DNA of 64,000 bases from a virus, in the IMG/VR virus record IMGVR_UViG_3300032330_000236, positions 905 to 64,904 of that record; one strand, 5' to 3'. Below are positions 28,536-54,600 of the stretch, piece by piece (position 1 is the stretch's first letter; each line of letters opens with the position of its first letter). The notes beneath the pieces are model-generated. The model saw only the letters and a list, made by a program, of their open reading frames with translations. It did no database searches and had not been told where the DNA came from. A program made the position numbers and the translations under genes.

Positions 28536-28900
28536 GCGGGGGAGGTAAGGAATCCTACCCGGGGGGGTCATTTCGTTTTTCCAAATCGCGTGCGCTGTGT
28601 AATTCGATAGGGGGTGGGGGTAGCTTGCCATGTTTGCCATGTGTTTCAGATAAAGGGGTATGTGTAATTCGATCGGACAGGGTATTGGACAGGGTATTTT
28701 AGGCTGATAGCCGGGTGTAATTGGGCCAATTACACACTCCAGAGGCGTGGCTACATGGAAGCCAATAATTATTACTTGGTAACTTGACATATTACTTGGG
28801 GAAAATTTTGGAAAATTGTGTAGTTGTTTGTTTATATTCGAGGGGGGAGGGTCGGGCGGAGAGGCTCATTTGGGTTTAGGGGGGTGGGGGTGTGGGGCGT
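28536..28900. repeat. G-tract and short-repeat region (candidate pac site/terminus)
   Basis: GTGTAATT x4, perfect IR GTGTAATTGG-G-CCAATTACAC at 28715-28735, tandem GGACAGGGTATT x2, TTGCCATGT x2, many G4-G8 runs. Confidence 0.6.
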
Positions 28901-28915
28901 AGGCTTATTTAGTGC

Positions 28916-28931
28916 TCTGTCACCTGACAGA
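28916..28931. promoter_or_regulatory. Palindromic site copy 1
   Basis: TCTGTCACCTGACAGA. Confidence 0.85.
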
Positions 28932-28935
28932 TTCG

Positions 28936-28964
28936 TTGACATTCCACACCGCATCAGTTAATAT
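28936..28964 (+). promoter_or_regulatory. Early sigma70 promoter P1
   Basis: TTGACA-17 nt-TAATAT. Confidence 0.75.
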
Positions 28965-29023
28965 TCTTTTACTGGATGCAATTCAGCGCCAGTAATTCAA
29001 ATCAAACCTTAAAGGAAATCAAA

Positions 29024-29671
29024 ATGACTAAATCAAAACAATCTCTCGTTTCAATCTCCGACATTGCACTCAATCATGGTAGGGCAGATAACCAAATTGA
29101 CCATTGTGCAAAAACGGCATTGGAAAAAATCAAGGGTTTTCCTGTACTTGCTGATGTAAGTGAAGAGAATATTCAATCTTTGCGCGATGGATATGCTATT
29201 GCATACAAAGAGGTTTTCAAACCTGTCACTTATGCCGTTATTAATGGTCACTATGTTCAGGCATCGCAAGAACATATCTCTAATGATAAGGTTGAAAAAA
29301 TCGAGTTAACCCTTGATTACTGCCTGTCATTTACCACACATGAGATAGGCACAATGTTCAAAGAAAACCCTGCTTTGAAGGCTTTGATTCGCAAAGAACG
29401 CGACGATCAATCAACCTACATTTCAACGAAAATCAAACGCTTAGTAGCTAAGGCAAACGAGATTCTTAAGAAAATGGCGGGAGAGACAACGAAAAGAGAG
29501 AAAGTGCTTTTCAATGTGACAGTAGCTAAATTCTTTGATGCACAAGAAAAGTCTGTCAAGGTTAAAGAAAAAGGTGGAGACCCTAGTGCGAACCCTGCTA
29601 AGTTTTTAACCGCAATGGATGCCTTTTGGAAAGTGTACGGCACAAAACCTGTGATCGTTAAGAAGTCTTAA
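29024..29671 (+). CDS. First early gene, hypothetical protein (monocistronic)
   Basis: AAGGAA RBS before ATG 29024; own promoter and terminator. Confidence 0.8.
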   Translation: MTKSKQSLVSISDIALNHGRADNQIDHCAKTALEKIKGFPVLADVSEENIQSLRDGYAIAYKEVFKPVTYAVINGHYVQASQEHISNDKVEKIELTLDYCLSFTTHEIGTMFKENPALKALIRKERDDQSTYISTKIKRLVAKANEILKKMAGETTKREKVLFNVTVAKFFDAQEKSVKVKEKGGDPSANPAKFLTAMDAFWKVYGTKPVIVKKS

Positions 29672-29683
29672 TAGACTGACCTG

Positions 29684-29714
29684 ACCCCAGACCGCAAGGT
29701 CTGGGGTTTTTTTT
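29684..29714 (+). terminator. Intrinsic terminator
   Basis: ACCCCAGACC-GCAA-GGTCTGGGGT followed by a T run. Confidence 0.9.
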
Positions 29715-29796
29715 CGCCCCGAACTTTTGATACCAGTTATTAAGGGCGCGCGCGTGATGAGTGAGTGGGTCGCGTGAGCCAAGATCTTAATTAGTG

Positions 29797-29814
29797 ATCT
29801 GTCACATGACAGAT
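29797..29814. promoter_or_regulatory. Palindromic site copy 2
   Basis: ATCTGTCACATGACAGAT. Confidence 0.85.
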
Positions 29815-29930
29815 TGGATTCATAGCTGAGACTAGTCCACACCACGCCGCATCGCCACGCATCGCTAAACGAAACTCAGAACTGACGCATTCGATCGCGC
29901 AAAGCACCGCAACACGCTGTTAACTTTACT

Positions 29931-30302
29931 TGTTCTAAAAAACGAGTAGAACAAAGCACACCTCGTAGAACAGAAAATCGCTTGTAAGTCCTTGTCAACA
30001 TTGAAGAAAAAGTTTTTGTTCTAATGTTCTACGATTTTGAGCATAGGGGTCGGAAATTTGAGAAAAACTCTGTGAGCAAGACTTGTCTGCCAAGTGCAAA
30101 GCCGTGTCCCGAAAATCAAAAATAAAACCGTATCCTACCTAAAAACCGTAGAACATTAGAACAAGTTTCATTTCTTTCTTTCTTTTTTATAAAATAATAA
30201 TACTTCTCCTTACAGAAACACATACTTCAACCAAAAAAGTAATACTCATTTTTGTTCTAACTTTACATAGGAAAATAGAACATCCGTAGAACACATAGAA
30301 CA
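29931..30302. repeat. Iteron-like cluster, candidate replication origin
   Basis: 11 TAGAACA copies in both orientations, 18-bp IR at 30016-30033/30147-30164, AT-rich tract. Confidence 0.7.
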
Positions 30303-30323
30303 AACTTCAAGCACCCGCCTGAT

Positions 30324-30465
30324 TAACTATCTTACGCAAAGCCCTTGACTAATATGTATAGTTGTGTTATACTTATAACTGAGTCGGGGATGAAATTCAT
30401 ATTCGACTCTAATTAACGATCTGTCACCTGACAGATTCAATCAACACACAAGGGAGTAAGTCATG
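30324..30465 (+). promoter_or_regulatory. Promoter/leader cassette A (P2, hairpin, palindrome copy 3, RBS)
   Basis: TTGACT-17-TATACT at 30345-30373; palindrome at 30419-30436. Confidence 0.85.
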
Positions 30466-30828
30466 GGTAAATTCAAAGCAATCGCCATCGACATGATGGA
30501 AAACCACGAGCAAGTGCAAGGCGACTTGTTCATCGAAGAAGAACTGCGCACACTGTTGCAGAACTTCAAGCCAACACCTGAGGAACTTCAAGCTGAACTC
30601 GATGAACTGCAAGCTCATCAGATGAGCCAGCCAAGCGTCAATGTGGTTCCTGAGATAAAAGTTTATTTGCTGATGAAGAACGGCTTTCCTCAGCGAAGCT
30701 ACACCGATCGGGCGTTGGCGTTCTATGAGTGCTGGATTTGCACAGCAGGTGATCTGCACACCGAGGAACCCGACGACTACTATGTGGTCGAGATCATGCA
30801 CGATGCGTCAACCTACACAGGGGAATGA
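30463..30828 (+). CDS. Hypothetical early protein
   Basis: 121 aa, AGGGAG RBS. Confidence 0.7.
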   Translation: MGKFKAIAIDMMENHEQVQGDLFIEEELRTLLQNFKPTPEELQAELDELQAHQMSQPSVNVVPEIKVYLLMKNGFPQRSYTDRALAFYECWICTAGDLHTEEPDDYYVVEIMHDASTYTGE

Positions 30829-30831
30829 GAC

Positions 30832-31005
30832 ATGAATCCAATCTATTACATAGGCACTGCCACGATCGCTTGCGGGTTTATCTTTATCGGGTGGGGTGGC
30901 GAGGGCTATCTGTCGCAAGTCTGCCTGATCTTGGGTGGCTTGGGCTTTGGCGCAGTTGTCACCGATGCGCTGAACTATGTTGAAGGAGGTGAGAGCAATG
31001 AGTAA
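30832..31005 (+). CDS. 57-aa two-TM microprotein (below the ORF-track cutoff)
   Basis: MNPIYYIGTATIACGFIFIGWGGEGYLSQVCLILGGLGFGAVVTDALNYVEGGESNE fills the gap exactly. Confidence 0.6.
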   Translation: MNPIYYIGTATIACGFIFIGWGGEGYLSQVCLILGGLGFGAVVTDALNYVEGGESNE

Positions 31006-31216
31006 ATCTACCCACACACCCGAGTGCCGCGACTGCGGCGAAGAGTACTCTGTCAAGCGGTGGAGTCTCGGCTATAAGTTTTGCCTGCCATGCGGTGAGC
31101 AAATCGCCAAGCGTGTCGTGCGAACAGTCGTGCCGATGCACAAGTCCAACTACATGATGGTCACGGACATGGCTGACTTGAAAGGCATCAACAACAAGGG
31201 AGGGTTTCACAGATGA
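30998..31216 (+). CDS. C4 zinc-finger protein (DksA/TraR-finger-like)
   Basis: CRDCGEE-x4-R-x7-CLPC; GGAGGT RBS before ATG 30998. Confidence 0.65.
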   Translation: MSKSTHTPECRDCGEEYSVKRWSLGYKFCLPCGEQIAKRVVRTVVPMHKSNYMMVTDMADLKGINNKGGFHR

Positions 31217-31506
31217 TGTACGAACCACAACCATCGAAAATGGAACAGATAAGACAGTCGTTTGTGAAGATCATTCGTCACAAACAGGACTTGGAGTTAG
31301 AGGTGATTAAGTTACTCAAGAACCCAGCCGCTACTGAGGCGCAAATCATGGAGGTAAGGGAGATGTTGCTTGCCGTAGAAGAACTACTGGGCAGTGCAGT
31401 GCGCAAGGCGAGGGGGAAGTATCCGTATCAGGGTATCAGCTATGCACCAAGACCTTGGCACAAACCCGAGTTCGATAAATACATGGAGGTGAAAGATGGG
31501 GTATAG
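31213..31506 (+). CDS. Hypothetical protein
   Basis: 97 aa, coupled. Confidence 0.65.
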   Translation: MMYEPQPSKMEQIRQSFVKIIRHKQDLELEVIKLLKNPAATEAQIMEVREMLLAVEELLGSAVRKARGKYPYQGISYAPRPWHKPEFDKYMEVKDGV

Positions 31507-31900
31507 ATCAGATGTCGCATACACGATTCGATTCGTGCATGAGGACGACACCAACAACAAGCAATCGTTCTATGTATTCTTAGCTGAGGCTAAGGCTAAT
31601 GCAGCCACGGCTGCTTGCTTCCTTGAGCATGAATGGGCTGAGTTTGAAATAGACGAAGCACGATACCGCATCAACTTTGCCGCTGACGATGTGAAGTGGT
31701 ACGAGAGCTATGCGGATGTGCAATGCCATGAGGCATTACTTAATCTAGCGAACGAGTGGGACAACGATGAGGATAACCACGCCAACATCGCTTTTCAGTT
31801 CGTGCGTATAGGCGAGGAGACTGATGACATCGAGGACAGACGAAGCGAATCTGCTGATGACTGGATTTATGTTGAACGCACGATCAGCAGGGATTGGTAA
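31496..31900 (+). CDS. Acidic hypothetical protein
   Basis: MGYRSDVA, VKWY, FVRIGEE.DD; GGAGGT RBS. Confidence 0.7.
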   Translation: MGYRSDVAYTIRFVHEDDTNNKQSFYVFLAEAKANAATAACFLEHEWAEFEIDEARYRINFAADDVKWYESYADVQCHEALLNLANEWDNDEDNHANIAFQFVRIGEETDDIEDRRSESADDWIYVERTISRDW

Positions 31901-31920
31901 ATAACTGGTCTCTTCCTGTG

Positions 31921-32062
31921 TAACTATCTTGCGTAAAAGGGTTGACCAATATGTCAAGTTGTGTTATACTTATAACTGAGTCGGGAATGGAAATCGTGAA
32001 CGACTTTAATCAACGATCTGTCACCTGACAGATTGAATCATCAATCAAAGGGAGTTCTTATG
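31921..32062 (+). promoter_or_regulatory. Promoter/leader cassette B (P3, hairpin, palindrome copy 4, RBS)
   Basis: TTGACC-17-TATACT at 31942-31970; palindrome at 32016-32033; colinear with cassette A. Confidence 0.85.
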
Positions 32063-32989
32063 AACATGGAGTTATCAAAGCCCAAGCATCTCATCAGCTT
32101 GGCATCGTCAGCAGTCCTCGTTAGCGTGGATGTCAATGTGTGGTCAGCAACGAAGCAAGATCGTGGCATCAGCAATGAGATCACTACCGCAAAGAACGCT
32201 TCAAGCAATGCGGGTCGGTATGTCAAGCACTTGTTGGCAGATCATCCCAAGCACAAGGCGTTGGTCAACTATCGTCAGACGATATACAACTGGGTCAAGC
32301 GCCGCACCTATCGTTGGAATAACTCTCAGGACTTGTTACCGAGTATTGATGTGCCACGCTTCAAGCAGGAGTTCGCAGAGCATCAAGCATCATTCAATAA
32401 GCTCTTAGCTGACTTCATTGTTTCCTACGACGGCATCGTGAGTGACATGGCGTTCAATGCCGCAGGCATGGGCGATATGTTTGATCGGTTGGACTACCCG
32501 CCCAAGGAAGCGTTGGTCGCCAAGTTCGGTGTGCAGTTATTCGTGAGCGAGGTTCCGATGAATGACTTTCGTTGTGGCATTGCGAACGACATCGCTGATG
32601 ATTTGTTTGCGACATACAGCAAGCAAGCCGAGGACATAGTGGTCTCCATCGTGACAGAGCAGAAAGCAAGGTTCGTCGAGGTGATGGAGTCGATCAGTCA
32701 TTGCTGTGGTGTGGATGAGATCGGTGTGGATGACAACACAGGCGAGACCAAGACCCGCAAGCGCAAGATCTACGACACCACAATTCAGAAAGCGTTGGAG
32801 ATGTGCGAGACCTTCAAGGGTTTCAACCTAAGCGCCGATCCCGAGTTGGAGGTAGCCCGAGCATCGCTTGAGAGAGCGTTGGCTGATGTGTCGGCAAAGG
32901 ACATTCGTGAGAGTGACGCAGTGCGTTCGAGTGTGAAAGAAGATGTTGACAGCATCTTGAGTAAGTTCAGTTCTTTTCAGTGTGTTTAA
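32060..32989 (+). CDS. DUF3150-like protein
   Basis: LVSVDVNVWSATKQD, KHLL, DYP; precedes the AAA and vWA genes. Confidence 0.55.
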   Translation: MNMELSKPKHLISLASSAVLVSVDVNVWSATKQDRGISNEITTAKNASSNAGRYVKHLLADHPKHKALVNYRQTIYNWVKRRTYRWNNSQDLLPSIDVPRFKQEFAEHQASFNKLLADFIVSYDGIVSDMAFNAAGMGDMFDRLDYPPKEALVAKFGVQLFVSEVPMNDFRCGIANDIADDLFATYSKQAEDIVVSIVTEQKARFVEVMESISHCCGVDEIGVDDNTGETKTRKRKIYDTTIQKALEMCETFKGFNLSADPELEVARASLERALADVSAKDIRESDAVRSSVKEDVDSILSKFSSFQCV

Positions 32990-33004
32990 TCAAGGAGTAA
33001 TCAA

Positions 33005-34081
33005 ATGAGCAAAATGAATTTCACCCCAATGGTATCCATCAACGAGTTGCGGAAAATGATTCCGCTAATAGGTTCAGATCTGACATTGGTCATACAGAGC
33101 GAGCCAGGTTGTGGCAAGACCTCCCTCTTATCTATGATGGAACAAGATCATGGCGACAAGTATGACTACATCTATGTGGACTGTCCTGTCAAAGACATGA
33201 GCGACATCGGTATGACTATTCCCAATCACGCAAGCAAGTCTCTTGAGTACTATGTTGCTGAGTTGTTCAACATGGACAGCGACAAACCTAAGATGATCTT
33301 ACTTGACGAGTTGATGAAGTCACCCAAGCTCATGCAAGTGATCTATACCCGACTCATGCTTGAGCGTATGGTGGGTGATCGGGCGTTGCCCAAGGGGTCG
33401 GTCATCATTGCAACATCTAACAACGCAAGCGATGGCGTGGGTGACTCAATGCTTGCCCACGCAGGCAATCGTGTGTGTATCGTGCGCATGGCAAAGCCCA
33501 CAGCTGATGAATGGTTGACATGGGCAACAGCTAATGGAATCTCTCGTGTTGTTCGTGCGTTCGTGTCTATGTTCCCTCGGGTCATGGCTTCCTACTTGGA
33601 AGGCGATAACCAAAAAGACAATCCATACATCTTCAAGCCAAGCTCGGGTGTGTTGTCGTTCTGTTCACCTCGTTCATTGGCGAAGTGCGATGTGATCGTG
33701 AAGCATCGTGATGTGTTGGGTGAGAACGCAACTATGGTTGCATTGGCAGGCACGATCGGTGCGTCAGCGGCGGGTGACATGGCGGCTTTCATGTCATTGG
33801 AGAAATCATTGACAGATGTCAAGGACATCGTGAAGAACCCGTTGGGTGTAGTCATGCCAAGAGACATCAGCGCACAGTTGATGATTATGTTTCAAGCAGT
33901 AGATACATTGGCGACACAGGACGAGTTGACAGCGTTCATGGAGTTCGTTGGTCGTATCGACTCAAGCGAGGTGCAAGCGGTGTTCTTCACCATGATGATG
34001 CGTAGTCCCAAGGCAGTGCGTCTTGCAAGAAACAATGCAAAGATCGCTGAGTGGGCTAAGAATAACCATGAACTGTTCTAA
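33005..34081 (+). CDS. AAA+ ATPase (MoxR/dynein-related)
   Basis: EPGCGKTS, ILLDE, IATSN, NR, SPRS. Confidence 0.85.
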   Translation: MSKMNFTPMVSINELRKMIPLIGSDLTLVIQSEPGCGKTSLLSMMEQDHGDKYDYIYVDCPVKDMSDIGMTIPNHASKSLEYYVAELFNMDSDKPKMILLDELMKSPKLMQVIYTRLMLERMVGDRALPKGSVIIATSNNASDGVGDSMLAHAGNRVCIVRMAKPTADEWLTWATANGISRVVRAFVSMFPRVMASYLEGDNQKDNPYIFKPSSGVLSFCSPRSLAKCDVIVKHRDVLGENATMVALAGTIGASAAGDMAAFMSLEKSLTDVKDIVKNPLGVVMPRDISAQLMIMFQAVDTLATQDELTAFMEFVGRIDSSEVQAVFFTMMMRSPKAVRLARNNAKIAEWAKNNHELF

Positions 34082-34091
34082 GGAGTGAGTG

Positions 34092-34286
34092 ATGATAAGT
34101 ATTACTGAGTTGGAGTTGGTGTTGTTCATTGGCTTTGTCGTGATGACAGGGATGTACTTCAAGCTGAGAGGCGAGTTGTATATGCACAGGCGTGTAACGG
34201 CTGAGATCTTCATGCGTATTGCCAAGGGCAATATGAAAGTGACAGAGACCGAAGATGGTTACGAGTTGGAGGTTACATCCAAATGA
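34092..34286 (+). CDS. Small single-TM protein
   Basis: LELVLFIGFVVMTGMYF; AAGGAG RBS. Confidence 0.6.
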   Translation: MISITELELVLFIGFVVMTGMYFKLRGELYMHRRVTAEIFMRIAKGNMKVTETEDGYELEVTSK

Positions 34287-34369
34287 GCGAAACAAAGTGG
34301 TTGACTCTCGCCTATGTGTTGGCGATGGTCGTTCTTGTGTTAGATGTTTTTTACTGGAGAGTGGGATGA
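34283..34369 (+). CDS. 28-aa single-TM microprotein (below the ORF-track cutoff)
   Basis: MSETKWLTLAYVLAMVVLVLDVFYWRVG with ATGA overlaps at both ends. Confidence 0.6.
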   Translation: MSETKWLTLAYVLAMVVLVLDVFYWRVG

Positions 34370-35646
34370 GCAAACAAGAGACGCGTGTTAAGAAGGCGCA
34401 CATCGCCTTGATGAAACACCCTGAGACAGCACTGTATAGCGGTGTGATGTTGATGGGTAAGAGTGAGGTCGTCGATAGTGGATGTCCTACGGCATACACC
34501 GATGGTGTCAACAAGGTCTATGGTCGCAAGTTCTTAGAGACTGTCGATACCGAGCCAAAGGTTCGTGGTTTGATACTGCATGAGAATCTTCATGTAGCGT
34601 TGAAGCAGTTGCCAAGAGGTAAGGATATGTTTGATGAGAATCGCAAGCTCGCAAACATCGCCGCCGACATGGTAGTCAACAACATCATCGAAGATATTAA
34701 AGGCACAGTCAATGGTTCGTCCGAGCGAATCGTTGCGTTGCCTGATGGTGCGGTGTATGACCCCATGTTCCAAAACTGGTCGATGCGTGAGGTATACAAC
34801 TATCTCAAGAAGAACTGCAAAGGCAAGGGCAAAGGTAAGGGTGAGGGCAAGGGCGGTGGAAATAGTGATCTGTCAGGTGACAGACCCGAAGATGGTGATG
34901 GAGATGGCGACACTATCACTATCAACGGCAAGACCTATGATCTTTCTGACGCAGACGAACATGATCTCGATAACCTGAAAGACCTGACGCATGAGCAGAT
35001 CAAAGAGATCAACGATGCAATCGACAAGGCATTGCGTGAGGGCGGTATGTTGGCGGGTCGCATGGGTGCAAAGATACCTAGATCAATCTCCGACTTACTT
35101 GAACCAAAGGTAGATTGGCGTGATGCGTTGAGAGACTTTGTAGCGAGTGCTATCAAAGGCAAAGATGAATTCACATGGCGTCGAATGAACAAGCGTCAGC
35201 TCGTCAATGATATTTATCTGCCAAGCATGGAGAACGAGACAATCGGTGAGGTGGTCGTTGCCATTGACACATCGGGTTCGATCGGCAGTGCGCAGATCAC
35301 TGAGTTTGCAACAGAACTGGTCTCTATTTGTGATCTGTGTTCGCCCGACAAAGTGCGTGTTTTGTGGTGGGATACCGATGTACATGGTGAGCAAGCCTTT
35401 GCAGGCAACTACCAAGACATCGCTACTCTACTCAAGCCAATGGGCGGAGGCGGTACTCATGTGTCATGCGTCAATGAATACATCAACAAGGAACGCATCA
35501 ATGCGGAGTGCGTCATCGTGTTCACTGATGGCTATGTTGAGAGCGACATCACATGGACTATTCCTAGCCCAACCCTGTGGATGGTCACCGAGTGCAAATC
35601 GTTCGAGCCTCCTGTCGGTAAGAAGGTGAAGTTCGGTGACGACTGA
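34366..35646 (+). CDS. HExxH metallopeptidase-like plus vWA protein (DUF2201 type)
   Basis: TAYTDG, LHENLH, MIDAS DTSGS, GGGGT, FTDGY; start moved to MSKQE. Confidence 0.85.
   Translation: MSKQETRVKKAHIALMKHPETALYSGVMLMGKSEVVDSGCPTAYTDGVNKVYGRKFLETVDTEPKVRGLILHENLHVALKQLPRGKDMFDENRKLANIAADMVVNNIIEDIKGTVNGSSERIVALPDGAVYDPMFQNWSMREVYNYLKKNCKGKGKGKGEGKGGGNSDLSGDRPEDGDGDGDTITINGKTYDLSDADEHDLDNLKDLTHEQIKEINDAIDKALREGGMLAGRMGAKIPRSISDLLEPKVDWRDALRDFVASAIKGKDEFTWRRMNKRQLVNDIYLPSMENETIGEVVVAIDTSGSIGSAQITEFATELVSICDLCSPDKVRVLWWDTDVHGEQAFAGNYQDIATLLKPMGGGGTHVSCVNEYINKERINAECVIVFTDGYVESDITWTIPSPTLWMVTECKSFEPPVGKKVKFGDD
34868..34885. promoter_or_regulatory. Palindromic site copy 5 (intragenic, inverted spacer)
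   Basis: ATCTGTCAGGTGACAGAC. Confidence 0.75.
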
Positions 35647-35878
35647 TTCATTTGCAATGCTGTTCGCTGACATTACTTATAGGACAAAAGGCGTGACAAA
35701 AGAAAGCAAACACCGAATGTCAAAAGAGTTAGCGCAGGAACTCAGAGATCAAATGGGGGACAACGCTTATCTCTTTTGCGTAGAGAAACTATCAAACGGC
35801 ACAGAACAACCACAACTGTGGCGTGATGTGTTGACTTGGCTTACTGAAACTGAAACAACAAAAGGGGAAACGAAATGA
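35636..35878 (+). CDS. Hypothetical protein
   Basis: Fills the gap; start uncertain. Confidence 0.5.
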   Translation: MTTDSFAMLFADITYRTKGVTKESKHRMSKELAQELRDQMGDNAYLFCVEKLSNGTEQPQLWRDVLTWLTETETTKGETK

Positions 35879-36852
35879 AGGGTCTTAGTTACGAGCGCCT
35901 TGAGCGCATTACACACAAAGAAAACCCATACCGAGGCACAACCAATCGGTATCCTGTGGGCAACCGCAGACACAACCTCAAGAACTTCTATGTCAGAGAA
36001 GAGAATGGCGTAAAAGTATTTGATGTGACATACGGCACACGACACAAGTCACACGCTTGTACGAAAGAACAATTCGATGCAATGGAAGCAACAGGCGCAA
36101 GTCATATTTATAAGTATGAATATACTGACCGCATTGAATACCTACGATACGAGGTAGTGCCATTCAGAATCGGCACAGTGTATCCCGAAGAATACTTTCA
36201 ATTCAACGGCGATTCCTACTATGGGCAGGGCGATCGTGCGTTCTTGAGTGATTGTTCTCATGGATGGTTCTGCAATGATTCACGCAGGGGCGGCATGGTG
36301 TGGACATTCGGTCGCGGCGTTGATTACCGATGTATTCCGATCTTCAAGGGTATGCGTGTCTCTACTGCGGATAACTTTGAAGTGCTTGATGACTATGTGG
36401 TGGTCGGCAAGAAAGTCAATCGTAAGGTGGGTAAAGATCTTCTTGCGGGATATGAAACTTTCTACAAGACTGCTGAGACTATGTGCAAAGCAATGTCTAG
36501 AGAAATCTTTCTTGCAACTGCTAAGGAAATCATTGAGGAGGAACAACGAGACCACAAAAAATTCTTTGATGAAGCCGAAGCACGACGAGATCAAGCACCG
36601 CTTGATGCAATGATTCTCTACGCGTTGGCGTTGGATGTGGGCAAGATCGGTCAACAGATCAACCATCCGAATTGGTATCAAGCCGAGCCACACGAAGTAT
36701 TTTGCAATCTCAAGCGAAAGATGAACAACGGACTCTATCGGGAACATCCCGAGGTGTTTACCCCTGTGCGTTATGGCAAGGGTGAGGCGTACCCACCAAG
36801 CATTTGGGGATACGAGATCGAGGTCAATGGCGAGATCAAGCAACAGTATTAA
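35875..36852 (+). CDS. Hypothetical protein
   Basis: 325 aa with RBS. Confidence 0.8.
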   Translation: MKGLSYERLERITHKENPYRGTTNRYPVGNRRHNLKNFYVREENGVKVFDVTYGTRHKSHACTKEQFDAMEATGASHIYKYEYTDRIEYLRYEVVPFRIGTVYPEEYFQFNGDSYYGQGDRAFLSDCSHGWFCNDSRRGGMVWTFGRGVDYRCIPIFKGMRVSTADNFEVLDDYVVVGKKVNRKVGKDLLAGYETFYKTAETMCKAMSREIFLATAKEIIEEEQRDHKKFFDEAEARRDQAPLDAMILYALALDVGKIGQQINHPNWYQAEPHEVFCNLKRKMNNGLYREHPEVFTPVRYGKGEAYPPSIWGYEIEVNGEIKQQY

Positions 36853-36858
36853 TCAGTA

Positions 36859-36876
36859 GTCTGTCATCCGACAGAT
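36859..36876. promoter_or_regulatory. Palindromic site copy 6 (degenerate, intergenic)
   Basis: GTCTGTCATCCGACAGAT. Confidence 0.65.
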
Positions 36877-36898
36877 TCATTTTCAAAAGGGGAAAGTA

Positions 36899-37822
36899 AT
36901 GAGTAGATATATTCTTGAGGGATTCAACGAGGAAGGCTTTGAAGAGAGCCTCAAAGCAAGCCGAGTGTTTCCATTGGTGCGTGACTTGTGCCACAAGTTC
37001 AATCTGAAAGTCTTAGCCGAGACAGAACTCAGTGGTAAGCAGGCGTTCCAGTTGTGCCATCCCAATGGCATGACAGTAGGTAAGGCGTTCGTCAGAGACA
37101 TCGACGACAACGGCAGTCTTGCAACAGAGTATTGCTATCGCACACCTTACTACACAAAAGAGCGTGGTAGGAGTCACGACGACAAGACAACATTGCGTAG
37201 CACCAAAGTCTCTTCACTGATAGCAACCATTGGCAGAGTCAAAGCTATTCCCAGTATCGACAAGTTGGTCGAGAAGAAGATGAACAAACTAGGCGATGCG
37301 AGAGAGATCATGGAGAAAGCGATGGGGAGTACACACAAGTCAACTAGTGAACTCTATGCTGACGAGATACAAGCATTGCTTTGTGCGGTACTAGGGGAAA
37401 CTCCTAATGGAAATCACATCACAATCGACACAGTTAAATGTAAAAAGGTACTTGACAAATACAATGAAGCTGATAGGATTCGGGTCAAGAAGTTAGAAGA
37501 AGTCGGTAGGTTTTTTCACAATCCTTTCTACATGATTGGTGCAGATCAATTCAACCACTTCATAGTCGGCAAAGTTAAAGTCATAGGGGAGAAACAGTAT
37601 GAAATCGTTGAGCCATTCAAACGCTACAAAAACATCACCGAGCGTGATGATCTTATCCCTGTGATGACTATGACTAAGTTAGCCTACGAGGGTAAGGGGC
37701 ATCGTATGCAGGCAGGTTACATACCCGCAACCGATATGTACGACGAGAGCCTTGATGCGGTGTTCTTCTACGAACAGCAAGCCACACACTACGACTACAT
37801 TTGGATGGCTACTCCATGCTGA
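36899..37822 (+). CDS. Hypothetical protein
   Basis: 307 aa with RBS. Confidence 0.8.
   Translation: MSRYILEGFNEEGFEESLKASRVFPLVRDLCHKFNLKVLAETELSGKQAFQLCHPNGMTVGKAFVRDIDDNGSLATEYCYRTPYYTKERGRSHDDKTTLRSTKVSSLIATIGRVKAIPSIDKLVEKKMNKLGDAREIMEKAMGSTHKSTSELYADEIQALLCAVLGETPNGNHITIDTVKCKKVLDKYNEADRIRVKKLEEVGRFFHNPFYMIGADQFNHFIVGKVKVIGEKQYEIVEPFKRYKNITERDDLIPVMTMTKLAYEGKGHRMQAGYIPATDMYDESLDAVFFYEQQATHYDYIWMATPC
37452..37479 (+). promoter_or_regulatory. Possible intragenic sigma70 promoter
   Basis: A-tract, then TTGACA-16-TAGGAT with TGn extension. Confidence 0.35.
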
Positions 37823-38169
37823 GTGAGAACCTTGCACCGATTGTTCATCAATGGAACTGGGACTTAGTGCGAGTCCCTGTTCGTAAGATTGAAGATCACT
37901 ACATCGTCTTTGTGGCTGACGCATATCACAGACGATACGACGAGGATACATTGCCTGATGAGTTGAAAACCAAGATGGCAATGATTCTCGCAAGCCCACA
38001 TCACAAGGTGTTACCTGACCACAAGTTGCAGAAGCTCACACTCTACACAAACAATGAGTCAGAAGAACTTGATGAGATAGGGTGGCAAGCATCGGACACT
38101 TTCTTTTGTGTGGCGTTGACACGCCCGACCTTGGCACTGATGAGAGGGGAAAAAGATGGGGAAACTTAA
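37816..38169 (+). CDS. Hypothetical protein
   Basis: Start moved to MLSENL; overlaps the upstream stop. Confidence 0.7.
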   Translation: MLSENLAPIVHQWNWDLVRVPVRKIEDHYIVFVADAYHRRYDEDTLPDELKTKMAMILASPHHKVLPDHKLQKLTLYTNNESEELDEIGWQASDTFFCVALTRPTLALMRGEKDGET

Positions 38170-38425
38170 AGCTGCTTGGTCAGAGGAACTTCTTGAACAG
38201 AGCATAAGGGAAATCATGTTCCCCAAAGACTATTGGATTACCAAAGATGGGCGGTTCATTCCTATTGATGACATGGACTTTCAACACCTTGAGAACATCG
38301 TCAATTTCTTTTCTCAGGAAGGCACAACAGTTGACCCGATGAGGCAAGGTGCGTTTGAAAAGGTGATGTTGCGGTATCTGCGTATGCAAGCCGAGATCAA
38401 TGATGTCCACAAAGATATTCTGTAA
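38156..38425 (+). CDS. Hypothetical protein
   Basis: WITKDGR.IPIDDM..HLENI. Confidence 0.7.
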   Translation: MGKLKAAWSEELLEQSIREIMFPKDYWITKDGRFIPIDDMDFQHLENIVNFFSQEGTTVDPMRQGAFEKVMLRYLRMQAEINDVHKDIL

Positions 38426-38436
38426 GGAGAGCAAGC

Positions 38437-38736
38437 ATGGCTAGTACACCCGAGGGCAGGGTCAAGGACAAGATCAAGAAGATTCTTAAGGCACACGATA
38501 TCTACTATGCGATGCCACATGGCGCGGGGTTTGGTAATGCGGGTGTGCCTGACTTCCTGTGTTGTGTTGAAGGAGAGTTTGTAGCAGTCGAAGCCAAAGC
38601 AAATGGTGGCAAGGTTACCGCGCTTCAACAAAAAAACTTATCTGACATCGAAGCCTCGGGAGGTTCGGCATGGGTTGTTGATGAAACCAATATCCACGTG
38701 TTTGAGATTTGGATAAAAGAAGGAGTGTTCCTATGA
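38437..38736 (+). CDS. VRR-NUC (PD-(D/E)xK) nuclease
   Basis: TPEGRVK, GVPD, AVEAK, TALQ. Confidence 0.85.
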   Translation: MASTPEGRVKDKIKKILKAHDIYYAMPHGAGFGNAGVPDFLCCVEGEFVAVEAKANGGKVTALQQKNLSDIEASGGSAWVVDETNIHVFEIWIKEGVFL

Positions 38737-38843
38737 AAGTATTTTGGTGGACAGTCCTTGCTGTGAATATGTTAGCGGTTGTGTGTACTGGTCTAGTCAC
38801 GCTTGGCTGGTGGTTAGCGTCAGCGTTACCAAGGAGTTTTTAA
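38733..38843 (+). CDS. 36-aa single-TM microprotein (below the ORF-track cutoff)
   Basis: MKVFWWTVLAVNMLAVVCTGLVTLGWWLASALPRSF; AAGGAG RBS and ATGA overlap. Confidence 0.6.
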   Translation: MKVFWWTVLAVNMLAVVCTGLVTLGWWLASALPRSF

Positions 38844-39047
38844 ATGGATGAACAAGACAGAAGTAATTTGCGTGATCTACACGCAGGGTTTGCAATGATA
38901 GGTTTAATTATGAAAGGAGATGCACCGCACACTATCCCAACCAAGGCATATCTGTATGCCGACGAGATGCAAGAAGCCCGAGACCAGCATGTCGCTGGAA
39001 TCGTATCAGTGAAACGCCGTACCAAAAAGGAGAAGGCAGATGAGTAA
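38844..39047 (+). CDS. Hypothetical protein
   Basis: LRDLHAGFAM..AYLYADEM phage small-protein pattern. Confidence 0.7.
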   Translation: MDEQDRSNLRDLHAGFAMIGLIMKGDAPHTIPTKAYLYADEMQEARDQHVAGIVSVKRRTKKEKADE

Positions 39048-39495
39048 AGTAATTGAGGTCGCCAACATGATGGCGAATGAACCAAACACTAAGGTGGATG
39101 ATGTCATTAAGAAATTGAAAATATCAAGGACTTATGCGTACAACCTGATGACGCAGGCGAGAAAGAAATACATCAACCGCCGTAACGAAGCGTTGAAGAA
39201 CAAACCCAAGTATCGAATGGAATCCTCAGCTACAAATCTGTCAGGTGACAGATCACTAAATATCGTGGAGACACACTTCCCGATCACAATGGAGTCTGAC
39301 CCAGTGAATCATCCCGAGCATTACAAGACAGGTGGTATCGAGACGATCGACTTCATCGAGGCAAAGAGTCTTGGCTATAACCTTGGCAACGTGGTGAAGT
39401 ACATCACACGATCAGACCACAAGGGCAACAAGCTACAAGACTTACAGAAAGCTCAGTGGTATCTCAACAGAGAGATTGCTAAGTCACAGGCTTGA
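39040..39495 (+). CDS. DUF3310 protein with possible N-terminal HTH
   Basis: DPVNHPEHY, GNVVKY, DLQKAQWYL. Confidence 0.85.
   Translation: MSKVIEVANMMANEPNTKVDDVIKKLKISRTYAYNLMTQARKKYINRRNEALKNKPKYRMESSATNLSGDRSLNIVETHFPITMESDPVNHPEHYKTGGIETIDFIEAKSLGYNLGNVVKYITRSDHKGNKLQDLQKAQWYLNREIAKSQA
39236..39253. promoter_or_regulatory. Palindromic site copy 7 (intragenic, inverted spacer)
   Basis: ATCTGTCAGGTGACAGAT. Confidence 0.8.
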
Positions 39496-39500
39496 TTCGT

Positions 39501-39526
39501 AGGCATGGTTCGCCATGCCTTTTTTT
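39501..39526 (+). terminator. Intrinsic terminator
   Basis: AGGCATGG-TTCG-CCATGCCT then T6. Confidence 0.85.
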
Positions 39527-39827: not shown

Positions 39828-40346
39828 ATGCTGACTGGATTAGATATTTTGATTGCACGAATGAAAACCAACCCCGAGGAGTTTCTTAAAGAAGATGGGC
39901 AAGTGCCTTATCAGGGGGAAATGTTTGGTGGGAAGTGGTCAGACTTACTTGACTACGCTTGGCGTGTTGCGAACGAAGAAGAACGAGCCGCCCTTGAAGT
40001 GGCGCAAAAAGAGTTTTATCGTGATGACTTTAACGAGCGAGTCTTCAAGCGTCTTGCAGGCGAGGAGAATATCCAACTGCCTGAGACCATGAGATACAAA
40101 GCGCAAGGGCGTTACGCAACAGGATGGATTGACCCAAGAGCGCAACAGGCGGCGCAAATGCACCCACTGCAAAATTCAGCACAAAATGCGGTGTTACAGG
40201 GCGGTATGTATGACCCGAATACGCATGGGTACTTGACCACCACAAGCGGTTTCCAAGCGGCAGAAATCAAAGGTGAGGGACAGCCCATTGGTTATAGCGG
40301 CGGTCAACCGCCTTTTTGGAGTGGTTTATTTGGGGGTAAGAAATGA
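39828..40346 (+). CDS. Hypothetical protein
   Basis: ILIARMKTNPEEF; AAGGAG RBS. Confidence 0.75.
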   Translation: MLTGLDILIARMKTNPEEFLKEDGQVPYQGEMFGGKWSDLLDYAWRVANEEERAALEVAQKEFYRDDFNERVFKRLAGEENIQLPETMRYKAQGRYATGWIDPRAQQAAQMHPLQNSAQNAVLQGGMYDPNTHGYLTTTSGFQAAEIKGEGQPIGYSGGQPPFWSGLFGGKK

Positions 40347-48199: not shown

Positions 48200-48520
48200 A
48201 TGCCACGGACATACAGTAAACAGTTTATTGCAGAGTTGGAGACGGCGAATCCCAACAGGGCAGGGATTGCCCTAGCTAATGCTTGCGTGAAAGGAAACTT
48301 GCCTGCAAAGTATGTAGCATATGCGCTGGACGTAACTCGGATGACGGTTTTCAGTTGGTTCCGTGGCGGTCACATCCGGCACAAAAACTTGTTGAAGATC
48401 GAAGCTATAACAGACCTCATTGAGAGTGATACTGCTAAAGGCATTCTTCCAGCAACAAACAATGCACAGGCGAAAGCCTACCTCGAAGAAATGGTCGGGA
48501 GGTCATTCGACGAGAAATAA
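48200..48520 (+). CDS. HTH DNA-binding protein
   Basis: AKYVAYALDVTRMTVFSWFRG. Confidence 0.7.
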   Translation: MPRTYSKQFIAELETANPNRAGIALANACVKGNLPAKYVAYALDVTRMTVFSWFRGGHIRHKNLLKIEAITDLIESDTAKGILPATNNAQAKAYLEEMVGRSFDEK

Positions 48521-51432: not shown

Positions 51433-51616
51433 GCCAGATTGGATATTTCCGTTTGAAGTTATGGAGGTAGGGGACAGTTTTTTTGTCCCCACCCTTCGCT
51501 TTGCTGAGATGATCTACATACTCGACAGCGGTGCAAAACGTGCCGGTATCAAGGTCAAATCCTATATCGTCGTTAAAGACGATCACATTGGAGTACGCAC
51601 ATGGCGCGTTCGTTAA
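51422..51616 (+). CDS. Small putative DNA-binding protein
   Basis: FPFEVMEVGDSFFVP..GVRTWRV. Confidence 0.7.
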   Translation: MVPEPDWIFPFEVMEVGDSFFVPTLRFAEMIYILDSGAKRAGIKVKSYIVVKDDHIGVRTWRVR

Positions 51617-54600
51617 GGTTTGACTCCGAATGCTTTGAACATGGTAATCATTTGATGTTTAATCATGTTCTCTTCAAATATATACACCTTCAATAGCTGG
51701 TCGCGCGCCTTGGGGGTCAGACCTTGGTTCAAGCGTACTAGCTCAGCCTCATGTCTGATTGAGTTAAGTTCTACAAGCTGTTCTTTATAGATGTCAACCA
51801 CTGCCCTGTGCATTGGGTTTTGTGCATCATACTTAGCTCCCTCTACTGGCGCTACGGTATCAAATGTGTTTATCTTCCTTTGGATCTCTTTAATTTGTTT
51901 TTCAACTGAACTGAACTCACGGGAATCTACGTTTGATTTAGAACCAAAGAAAGATCCAAACAAAGGTACATCAGTTTTGGGATTGAACTCTTTCGCACCT
52001 TTACCTAGATCAAACATGCCATAGCTAAGCTCAGCCAATTTACCAAGACCATCAAGATAGCTATTCGTAAAGAAGTACAACGTGTTAGGACTTACTTGAA
52101 CGCCGCCCACACCAAAGCCGGGCACGTCAGACTTAAACAATGACTGCGCAACTTTCTTATAGATCTCAGGAATCTTATCTCCACCTGTGTATGCGTCACC
52201 CATACGACGAGCCGTTGCGCTGTTAATGTCTTGCCCAATACCATTCTTGTTCATCAAGTACTCAGTCAATGGACGAACCACTGTGGGCATCATGGAGTCG
52301 ATCGTAAAAGCCAGCGGTGCTTCAGATGGAGGAATCTTGGAAATGGGGATAGGCACAAACGAGTCTGCCATGATCGACAACACGATATTGCTCATGCCGT
52401 CTTTAAGAGAGGTATTGCCTTGCGTCATACCCGCAACCTGTGCGCCAGCCGCTGCAAACGCGCCCAGTCCAAAACCCCAAGGTACTTGGAACACTACATC
52501 TTTACCCAGACCTAAACTCTCTGAAACGCTGTTGGGTATATGGAATCTTGCATTGCGAGTCCACTGTTGCATGTTGTCGTTCTTGACATTGTTACGCCCA
52601 AACTCATCATCGGGAGCCATCATTGCCGCCATCATATACATCAGATAGCCCATGCCAGACAGAGCAGTAATCATAATCCGTGCGTTGCGCTGCTTCTCAG
52701 CATACTCGGTGCGAAACTTAGCTTCGGCAACTGGGTCATTTCGAATGTTTGCAGGCAAGCCAGCAATTACATCATCTATGTTGCGGAACGCAGGAGCCAC
52801 CGCTTCGATGGCACGCTTGGCGCTGATTGCTGAAGGACGGATGAACATATACAAAGCACCCAACCCACGGCTGTAAGTACCCTTCTGTTCAAAGTTGGTC
52901 ATCTCCTTGGCATACACCGCTGCTTGGAACGCCGCTGCTTTTTCAGCCGCAGACATCTCACCGTTAGGGCCGGGTGTTGTTGAGAGGCCGTTCGCTATTT
53001 GTTCTTTTAAGGCACGCTCTTTCTCTTGGGCATACACCGCCGCACGGCTGGTGAATTCAAACATGTTGTTCCATGTATCCATGAGATTGTTGAACTGCTC
53101 AAGATTTGTAATTCGCCCTGACTTGCCAACAGACTCACTTAATTTCTCAAGATTAGATTTCAATGAAAAGCTTTGTGTATAGGACGACTTACCACCATGC
53201 TCAAGATATTCGACCATGTTCTTAACAAAGCCATCTTCATTTGCCATCTTTGCCAGCAACGCTTTACTTGCAGGATCGCCCTTATCGTGGAGCATGGCAA
53301 CTTTCCATGCTTTGGGGAAACCGTTGTTAGCAACAATATTTCCAGCGATAGATGCCGCGTATTTAACCGCTTCGATTGGGCCTCGATCTGCACCAATGTT
53401 GAAGGTATTAAACAACGTATCGCGCACAAAGTTCATTGGTGCAAAGTTGTAGTTGTACCGTGTGTGCAATGAGCCAAAGAATCCTGTGACACGGTTTGCC
53501 ACGTCCAGCAAAGTGTTGGCATCTTGGTAGGTATACCGTAATGAGTTGAGCACCTTTTGGTCGGTGACTTTCAGAATGTCAAGAGAACCATCTTGGTTGT
53601 AATGGAAGATGTAATCTTCGCCCTTGTATTTCTTCATGTCGATGTCGTTGCGCTCCCAGAACTTGTAGCTCTTCGCTACTTCACCGGGGATGATGCCTGC
53701 TTCAATCGCATTCTTAATTGACTGGGTATAGTAGCGGCGACCAGCACGGCCTGCTGCACGAATAGCATCTGAAAGGCTTTGCAGGATTGGATTATCAGAG
53801 ACGCTAAAACGTCCTTCCATTGATGCTTGGAACTCTTGCAGCTCACGTCCATTGCGGCGGCTATCAAAGTCAAAGATATCGTCAGCATGACGCTTGTTGC
53901 GTTCTTTACCCTTGAATGGCATGTAGTTCTGGAAGTTGTACAGTCCCACAAGGTTTGCCACAGGCGTAGACCAATAGTTACCGATCTCATTCAACTCAGA
54001 AGTGACCTTGTGCAGTTCCTTCATCGTGTTGAATATATCCATAGTGGCTTTGTACTCAGCAGGGTTGTTCCGTTGCATATCTGCCAACTGCTGTTGACGT
54101 AAGGCAATCTCAGACTGCTCAAGGCCAAGCACGTTATACATGCCGTCTTTAATATCTGTAGGGATGCCTTGCTTAGCTTTACCGGGAGGTGGCGGTCTAT
54201 TCAGTCGTTCACGAATCTTGTCAGAGATGCGGGGGCTATCGCCAAACGAATCAAAATATGAATTAGCTAATTGCTCTAACTCAGCGCGTAGCTGCGCCAA
54301 CTGCTGTTCGCTTAACTGCGCTTGATGAATCAGGCCCGGTTTGTTAGCACGCTCATCACCAACAATCTGTATACGACGCTCAGCAGGGCTGATATGTACG
54401 CCATTCTGTACAAGAATCTTTTGAGTGCTCAATGGCACTGTCAACAACCACTTCACAAACCGACGCTCTGGCTCATGTAGCGCCTCGGAAATCCGGTGCA
54501 GCTTGTTCAACGCAAACTTGAGATTTCCACCAAGCATTTCAGAGTAAGCCTTGACTTGGTTATGCGCTCTTTCCTCAATGTCTTGCACTTGATTGATGTA

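Follow-up and report, generated by a model that had tools for sequence, protein, structure and literature searches.

The DNA considered here is a window of 64,000 nucleotides, the whole stretch that was analyzed, from the virus of IMG/VR record IMGVR_UViG_3300032330_000236 (referred to as W). The window corresponds to bases 905-64904 of a 64,904-base record with direct terminal repeats. Every gene between 29.0 and 51.4 kb is on the + strand, and the virion genes are on the - strand. The + strand genes include small genes of unknown function and genes for a MoxR-type AAA ATPase, a DUF2201/VWA protein, a DUF3310 protein, a DNA polymerase, a helicase and a primase. The early region contains seven copies of a short sequence with dyad symmetry, spanning 28915-39253, and the first early gene (29024..29671, + strand) encodes what is probably the best candidate for the protein that binds them. 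We call this gene and its product gp1; the label does not refer to gp1 of phage N4.

The original prediction, made by reading the sequence, was of seven copies of a parS-like palindrome confined to the early region. The copies and their confinement were found again, and the parS label did not hold up (see below). The exact pattern ATCTGTCA-NN-TGACAGAT matches the window at four positions (29797, 30419, 32016 and 39236; mean in 100 shuffles, 0.00). With up to three mismatches there are seven matches, at 28915, 29797, 30419, 32016, 34868, 36859 and 39236, against a shuffle expectation of 0.22 (standard deviation 0.50, maximum 2), and none of the 100 shuffles reached seven. In the 18-bp frame the first copy begins at 28915; its 16-bp core begins at 28916, the position given originally. 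A scan of the complete 64,904-base record returned the same seven dyads and no others, and a reversed-pattern control returned none. All seven share a perfect core, TCTGTC-N4-GACAGA, with the spacers ACCT (three copies), AGGT (two), ACAT (one) and ATCC (one) in the N4 frame. They are 0.6-2.9 kb apart across ~10 kb at what is presumed to be the leading end of the genome.

Three of the copies (dyads 1, 3 and 4) are beside promoters, two (2 and 6) are intergenic and two (5 and 7) are intragenic, as first described. Dyad 1 (28915..28932; CTCTGTC ACCT GACAGAT) has a TATTTA box immediately upstream and ends 3 nt 5' of the -35 hexamer of the sigma-70-like gp1 promoter (28936..28964, + strand; TTGACA-17-TAATAT). 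The gp1 unit is closed by an intrinsic-terminator-like hairpin of 11 pairs and a T run (29683..29708, + strand), and dyad 2 (29797..29814; spacer ACAT), with a TAATTA box upstream, lies between this terminator and an iteron-rich non-coding region. Dyads 3 (30419..30436) and 4 (32016..32033), both with the spacer ACCT, are in the leaders of two near-identical, strong sigma-70-like promoters on the + strand (30345..30373, TTGACT-17-TATACT with a TG before the -10; and 31942..31970, TTGACC-17-TATACT). Both promoters are 45 nt upstream of the dyad, which starts 45 nt past the -10 hexamer. Dyad 3 is followed, 26 nt downstream, by the ATG at 30463; dyad 4 is in the leader of the operon formed by the gene at 32060 and the MoxR-ATPase and VWA genes. 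Dyad 5 (34868..34885) falls in the part of the VWA (DUF2201) gene that encodes a Gly/Lys/Asp-rich linker and reads LSGDR in ...GGGNSDLSGDRPEDGD.... Dyad 6 (36859..36876; GTCTGTC ATCC GACAGAT) is between a stop codon at 36850-36852 and an ATG at 36899. Dyad 7 (39236..39253), within the DUF3310 gene, likewise reads LSGDR, in ...SSATNLSGDRSLN...; its TAATTA-like box is on the opposite side, and the site is hence in reverse orientation.

Several features of the sequence around the dyads are worth recording in their own right. The surroundings of dyads 3 and 4 are a duplicated cassette (30324-30465 and 31921-32062) in which a sigma-70-like promoter, a leader stem (GAGTCG...CGACTC), a TAATTA box, the dyad, a ribosome binding site and an ATG are at identical offsets. 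The -10 and leader of the cassette promoter are recognizable 5' of the ortholog of the 32060 gene in many relatives. The largest non-coding gap (29820-30340) has roughly twelve copies of a TAGAAC/GTTCTA repeat, some in each orientation, together with an AT-rich stretch at ~30165-30260. From its sequence, this gap, which has dyads 2 and 3 on either side, resembles a replication origin of the iteron type. A G-rich tract (28840-28905, with runs of 5-7 G) is just 5' of dyad 1, between the divergent late and early blocks, and may be near a physical genome end or a packaging site.

Relatives of W have dyads of their own at the same places. We compared 70 loci, found by searching IMG/VR for the VWA protein (45-92% identity, best tblastn segment). 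A scan of relatives had been proposed in the original prediction: the geometry and the places of the sites are kept, and the sequence of the W core, TCTGTC-N4-GACAGA, occurs in none of the 70 loci. It is replaced by other arms even where the VWA protein of the relative is 82-93% identical. In 49 of the 70 loci there are three or more copies of the locus's own dyad with the geometry found in W (arms of 5-7 bp and outer ends 18 bp apart). Counting W, a two-copy TCCAT class and a TTCAA class, there are at least 14 arm classes; the arm sequences listed are TCTGT, TCCGT, TCCAC, CTCAC, CCCAG, CCCAC, TCCAT, TTCAC, TTCAG, TTCAA, AACGG, ATCGG, TTCGG, TTCCG and CGTTA. All copies within one genome change in concert. 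Near-complete relatives have their dyads restricted to 6-13 kb of the early region, with no matches in reversed-pattern controls. For example, all 10 dyads of G001 are inside 10 kb of 60.7 kb, all seven of G003 inside 7.8 kb of 63.3 kb, and all five of G005 inside 13 kb of 62.9 kb; G002 has nine, seven of them inside 6.3 kb and two that are one-mismatch outliers.

The positions of these sites are conserved even inside genes. Of 49 relatives, 42 have a class dyad at the matching place within the VWA gene, and 20 of 30 have one within the DUF3310 ortholog, each with the arms of its own genome. Similarly, the leader upstream of the 32060 ortholog is recognizably shared among relatives, and the dyad in it has each genome's own arms. 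Because the class dyads keep their places in the VWA and DUF3310 genes with their own arms, the intragenic dyads appear to be old and functional and to be under selection as DNA, as was originally proposed, with the coding sequence adapting to the dyads.

Aligning 213 unique sites on the dyad revealed a larger element. TAATTA is found family-wide at -8 to -3, and a weaker mirror image is found at +22 to +27. The extended dyad is thus ~36 bp long: TAATTA, 3 bp, a genome-specific arm of 5-7 bp, 4-6 variable bp, the mirrored arm, 3 bp and TAATTA. The four elements are ~10 bp apart and would therefore lie on one face of the helix.

Which phage protein might recognize such sites? A gene that co-varies with the motif, which the original prediction had suggested looking for, was found, and among the 24 + strand gene families compared it is gp1 alone. 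For loci of defined class, pairwise identity in each family was regressed on VWA identity plus a same-class term; families beyond +/-10 kb were only partly covered by this comparison. A same-class effect was seen for gp1 only: its term was +0.157 identity, and those of the other families ranged from -0.092 to +0.087. With near-identical genomes collapsed, leaving 19, the effect was 0.149, and it was matched in none of 2000 label shuffles, which did not keep the phylogeny. In the W clade, gp1 proteins are 26-57% identical, as compared to 79-89% for the VWA protein, and gp1 identity peaks where the arms differ least: W and the TCCGT genomes share 53-57%, and the TCCAC genome L009 shares 57% with CTCAC genomes. 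Dyads flank the gp1 gene on both sides in most genomes, and in 36 of 55 non-redundant gp1 upstream regions a box and dyad are 0-3 nt from a -35-like hexamer. Thus, among the products that had been proposed as binders, that of 29024-29671 is the best candidate by class co-variation.

gp1 is a protein of 215 amino acids with an isoelectric point of 9.27. Its predicted structure (mean predicted local distance difference test score, pLDDT, 86.7) is helical with a small sheet and one 36-residue helix. The family is large, with 348 clusters (at 50% identity) found at E <= 0.001 among 1.84 billion representatives from public metagenomes. It resembles little else in the searches applied. A Pfam search with 20 members found no family; Foldseek against PDB and BFVD and a profile search of PDB gave no clear match; and a wide structure search (VIA) gave short helical pieces only, with a best Z of 5.9. 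PADLOC gave a single weak row at chance level. A protein atlas returned only the family's own viral clusters, together with weak, unconfirmed leads, all below 0.8, that pointed to DUF3102 and to a repressor domain from a Streptomyces phage. Close variants of gp1 are 92%, 87% and 71-75% identical; scans that used gp1 or alignments of it reached distant relatives only or nothing.

The residues that follow an invariant Y-x-S on the predicted 36-residue helix vary with the dyad arms, and we consider them a possible recognition segment. The segment SNR is found with CAC arms in four arm classes, SNK with CAT, STK (in W) with TGT, SDK or SDT with CGT, and TTT with CAA. SGC accompanies CAG both in the CCCAG genomes and in a distant TTCAG genome, and SDT, SDC and SEC accompany CGG or CCG. 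In a tally of segment-arm combinations that are not independent lineages, and from which two mis-classed L019 rows were dropped, Asp or Glu at S+1 was present in 5/6 combinations with a base other than A at arm position 5 and in 0/17 with A. A gp1 variant 92% identical to that of W has ITKKIS where W has ISTKIK.

Many relatives have two tandem gp1 paralogs, each with its own dyad and promoter (L011:2320-3880, L020:4240-5758, L026:1770-3215, L062:2621-4188 and others). L015 and L020, in which one paralog has SNR and the other SNK, have CAC/CAC, CAT/CAT and mixed CAC/CAT dyads, and L011 has mixed TCCGTC/TCCGCC dyads. There are hints here that mixed dyads reflect gp1 heterodimers, although mixed sites also occur where both paralogs are SNR.

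Other candidate binders were considered and rejected. The product of the open reading frame at 48200-48520, which had been proposed as a binder, has 106 amino acids and a weak HTH_3 match (13 bits, under the cut-off). It is conserved in 29/30 relatives (42-91% identity) and is an unlikely binder because it is nearly invariant across dyad classes, being 84-91% identical in relatives with different dyads. The DUF3310 product (39040-39495), also proposed originally, showed no class effect, nor did 22 other families. The 2168-amino-acid virion protein does not behave as a factor that tracks class; it is a mosaic, 52% identical overall between the same-class genomes G019 and G007 and 68-76% identical between W and the other-class genomes G001 and G002.

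Of the functions put forward in the original prediction, operators for early genes are favored by this evidence. We propose, with a probability of about one half, that gp1 is an autoregulated early regulator and that the dyads are its operators and roadblock sites. Host sigma-70 RNA polymerase would make gp1 first, or at once, from the gene's own promoter, with the terminator closing the unit. From the patterns described above we infer binding of the extended dyads by gp1, presumably as a dimer or a higher oligomer (a tetramer), and repression as the likely sign of regulation. On dyad 1, abutting the -35 hexamer, gp1 would limit its own promoter. It could also act at ~+47 in the leaders of the two strong early promoters and, at the dyads between and inside early genes, serve as a roadblock, so that early units would shut down as the protein accumulates. 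We suspect that gp1 and its sites diversify together and would therefore form specificity classes among related phages, like immunity groups.

Several observations weigh against this proposal. gp1 has no recognizable DNA-binding domain or fold match, and no RNA run was listed as containing the early region. The pairs of genomes in the co-variation statistics are not independent, so that the significance of the gp1 effect is overstated, and TCCAC-class genomes with distant backbones (L009, L017 and L063 compared to others) share just 25-47% gp1 identity. The tandem paralogs of many relatives blur the assignment of gp1 to class. The relation between segment and arm is not one-to-one, since SQK and SNV likewise pair with CAC, and hybrid CAC/CAT sites occur often, also in genomes whose two paralogs both have SNR. 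In a relative recovered in runs X2, X3 and X5, parts of gp1 are replaced (>15% different from W); among the best-supported differences listed, none is in the arms of dyad 2, and one changes its spacer from CA to GG. The promoter layout is not universal: 19 of the 55 gp1 upstream regions do not have the box-dyad-(-35) arrangement under the criteria used, and 2 of the 36 that do look spurious. For simple repression, +47 and the interior of a gene are unusual places, and the sites may activate transcription or have some other role. Lastly, the first genes of phages often evolve fast for other reasons, anti-defence being one example.

The best of the alternatives, which we nonetheless consider unlikely, is that gp1 or another phage protein binds the dyads for a purpose other than transcription. 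Examples would be partition or positioning in the manner of a centromere, a part in bridging or compacting the early region, regulation of stepwise DNA entry, and coupling to the adjacent iteron origin, following the logic of ParB, KorB or T5 without a ParB. Such a role would suit the distribution of the dyads, with gaps of no more than 2.9 kb over ~10 kb at the presumed leading end. Two of them also bracket the iteron-rich, AT-rich non-coding region at 29.8-30.3 kb. Position-conserved intragenic sites are hard to account for by promoter control, and the operators of KorB are themselves at both proximal and distal positions (PMC11790492). However, a search of the 64.9-kb genome for ParB_N (PF02195) at E <= 0.1 gave no matches, with the control positive in 11/14 known genomes, and no integrase was found in W. 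A podophage that looks lytic has no obvious need for partition. In addition, the most tightly conserved layout is at promoters, both where the dyad abuts the -35 at gp1 and in the leaders of the conserved sigma-70 promoters. PHROGs and Pfam scans of the larger open reading frames named no ParA, with no search aimed at ParA families.

A somewhat less probable alternative is that the inverted repeats function as folded hairpins, either in RNA or in DNA that is single-stranded: as promoters for a virion RNA polymerase (vRNAP) of the N4 type, as nut-like antitermination sites with a boxA and a boxB, or in leader processing or translational control. W is distantly related to N4-like phages by its MoxR ATPase and gene layout, and the early promoters of N4 are inverted repeats at the injected end (PMC4496689). 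Sites 10-20 nt 5' of ribosome binding sites, a family-wide box ahead of a phage-specific repeat, and two sites within leaders, ~45 nt past the -10, would all be in keeping with a hairpin. In the replication-gene region at 39.4-52 kb, matches to sigma-70-like promoters are rarer than in shuffles (6, against 15.3 +/- 4.4 expected).

The pattern of substitutions argues against a hairpin. Among 207 sites, the complementarity of mirrored pairs outside arm positions 2-6 did not exceed that in within-class shuffles (largest z = 2.0), and no covariation keeps the pairing outside positions conserved in sequence. One-arm searches found 218 perfect sites and 185 with a single mismatch, ~35 of which we estimate to be expected by chance. 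The mismatch would leave a G-U pair on the + strand in 67 of the 185, on the - strand in 43 and on neither in 75, so that 118 would break a + strand RNA stem. A hairpin is disfavored because a stem of 5-7 bp would not tolerate such mismatches, whereas two half-sites read by a protein would. The spacers that would form the loops differ among the sites of a single genome, unlike those of N4 promoters; the TAATTA box is mirrored downstream; dyad 7 is reversed; and a search of Rfam gave no family at the dyads. Neither the 2168-amino-acid protein nor the products of 35875-36852 and 36899-37822 gave a match to an RNA polymerase in the searches applied. Taken together, these properties fit double-stranded DNA with two half-sites that would be read by a symmetric protein. 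The nut sites of lambdoid phages, downstream of early promoters, combine a boxA with a boxB, a phage-specific RNA hairpin in which both the loop and the pairing are required. Two W sites are indeed in leaders, but their varying loops, frequent mismatches and lack of pairing covariation do not correspond to nut.

It is improbable that the dyads are recognized by a host protein, such as ParB, a nucleoid protein or a regulator, with arms that track the host and not a phage gene. As originally counted, and as we reproduced by hand, the W core matches the chromosomal parS consensus at 11/16 positions, and the palindromes are of similar length. Differences in the arms between relatives could in principle mirror different hosts. 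However, several of the arm classes occur among phages whose VWA proteins are 79-89% identical, and a phage gene, gp1, co-varies with class. The parS assignment itself is rejected because there is no ParB domain, because the half-sites are not abutting but separated by 4-6 variable bases, and because the motif is absent from the 70 related loci. Finally, selfish or neutral palindromes homogenized by gene conversion, with no binder, could explain the concerted change of all copies in a genome, but hardly their conserved places across classes (including in-frame copies in two genes), their fixed register with -35 hexamers and their confinement to one region, and we consider this explanation the least credible of all.

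A nucleotide search of a phage collection with W gave no matches, nor did tblastn of the same collection with gp1. By terminase (47-51% identity), the nearest cultured phages are the pelagiphages HTVC027P/023P, phage 023Pt_psg01 and phage DSL-LC04. In DSL-LC04, the first 50 kb lack both a gp1 homolog and repeated dyads. The conserved operon at 32060-35646 encodes an unknown 309-amino-acid protein, the MoxR-type AAA ATPase (most of its tblastn matches are to N4-like phages, at 23-26% identity among those listed) and the DUF2201 metallopeptidase-like/VWA protein. Terminator-like hairpins are at 39501-39520 and 40299-40312. The 2168-amino-acid virion protein (51613-58119, - strand) has an LPD38 domain (1848-2045) and, at ~residues 932-936, an HExxH motif. 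Of 30 relatives, 28 have a homolog, 1923-2550 amino acids long, with conservation confined to the C-terminal half and the N-terminal sixth swapped mosaically among genomes. PHROGs, Pfam, tblastn, and PDB sequence and profile searches found no similarity of this protein to N4 vRNAP or to any RNA polymerase, and PDB profile searches with 35875-36852 and 36899-37822 found nothing relevant. A search of the genome for PF00940 was empty, as was its control, which was positive nowhere. No RNA polymerase was recognized in W by the searches applied.

If gp1 does regulate early genes through the dyads, then the timing of early genes in uncultured, apparently widespread freshwater phages would depend on the polymerase of the host and a single small regulator. 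After the stoperators of mycobacteriophages, this would be the second independent example in which a regulator and its multi-site operators co-evolve into specificity classes; here the phages show no sign of lysogeny, and even coding sequence retains sites. The gp1 family offers many natural specificity variants and a short candidate recognition segment, making a DNA-recognition rule directly testable, and it could supply orthogonal repressor-operator pairs. For annotation, a dyad with a TAATTA box could mark the early transcription units of the clade.

A bolder version of the proposal is possible, although we doubt it on balance. The gp1 family might be a new fold of dimeric, sequence-specific DNA binder whose specificity is set by 2-3 residues of one long helix, with at least 14 classes and 5-10 operators per genome in an apparently lytic clade of freshwater podophages, and competition between co-infecting relatives might have driven its diversification. 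During co-infection, a foreign gp1 that recognizes the resident operators would shut down the resident early genes. There would then be classes resembling immunity groups without lysogeny, and a natural orthogonal set of repressors and operators.

Parts of this arrangement have counterparts in N4. The early vRNAP promoters of N4 are three only, each with a GC-rich heptamer centered at -11, conserved loop bases and a stem in which pairing is kept. The product of ORF1 (open reading frame 1) is reported to be required for use of the middle promoters, which contain an AT-rich element, and an unidentified factor "X" that binds double-stranded DNA with gp1 of N4 at these promoters is proposed to open the AT-rich promoter (PMC4496689). 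Like N4, W has inverted repeats at the leading end, an AT-rich box beside the site and a first gene whose product is a candidate factor. Unlike in N4, the spacers vary, pairing is not kept by covariation, and neither a vRNAP nor an RNA polymerase II of the N4 type was found in W. By analogy, the AT-rich box next to the dyads would fit a variant of N4-style promoter opening, but the searches applied recognized no phage polymerase in W.

KorB of the IncP-1 plasmid RK2 offers a closer parallel. KorB is a CTP-dependent sliding clamp of the ParB family that acts with KorA; it represses PkorA from an operator directly 5' of the -35, and its OB sites may be proximal or distant (PMC11790492). Similarly, the palindrome of W is repeated on one replicon, just 5' of a -35 and at distal and intragenic positions. 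Unlike KorB, which belongs to a known family, gp1 gave no clear match in fold searches, and the W genome has no ParB_N.

Mycobacteriophages offer another such parallel. The Cluster A phages L5 and Bxb1 repeat one short site, in some cases in promoters and mostly in short intergenic spaces away from promoters (PMC6550527). These stoperators are asymmetric, number 20-30 per genome, are found genome-wide and are oriented with transcription. Their motifs vary between related phages, correlating with repressor distances, and one site is at the regulator's own promoter. The phages are temperate, with an integrase or parABS (PMC6550527). W likewise has many copies of its site, some intergenic and away from promoters and one at the promoter of the candidate regulator, and in its clade the motif co-varies with that candidate, on statistical evidence from pairs that are not independent. 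Unlike stoperators, the sites of the W clade have dyad symmetry and TAATTA flanks that mirror each other, one copy in W is in reverse orientation, and there are only 5-10 sites per genome (seven in W), within ~10 kb of early genes and some of them at conserved intragenic places. gp1 also differs from the helix-turn-helix immunity repressor of the mycobacteriophages in having no Pfam family, and it is found in a genome with neither an integrase nor ParB_N. We suggest that the reading of the dyads as operators and roadblocks is closest in logic to the mycobacteriophage stoperators and the KorB operators, and that the system of W may work like a repressor with multiple co-evolving operator and roadblock sites, its candidate regulator coming from a protein family that has no known fold.

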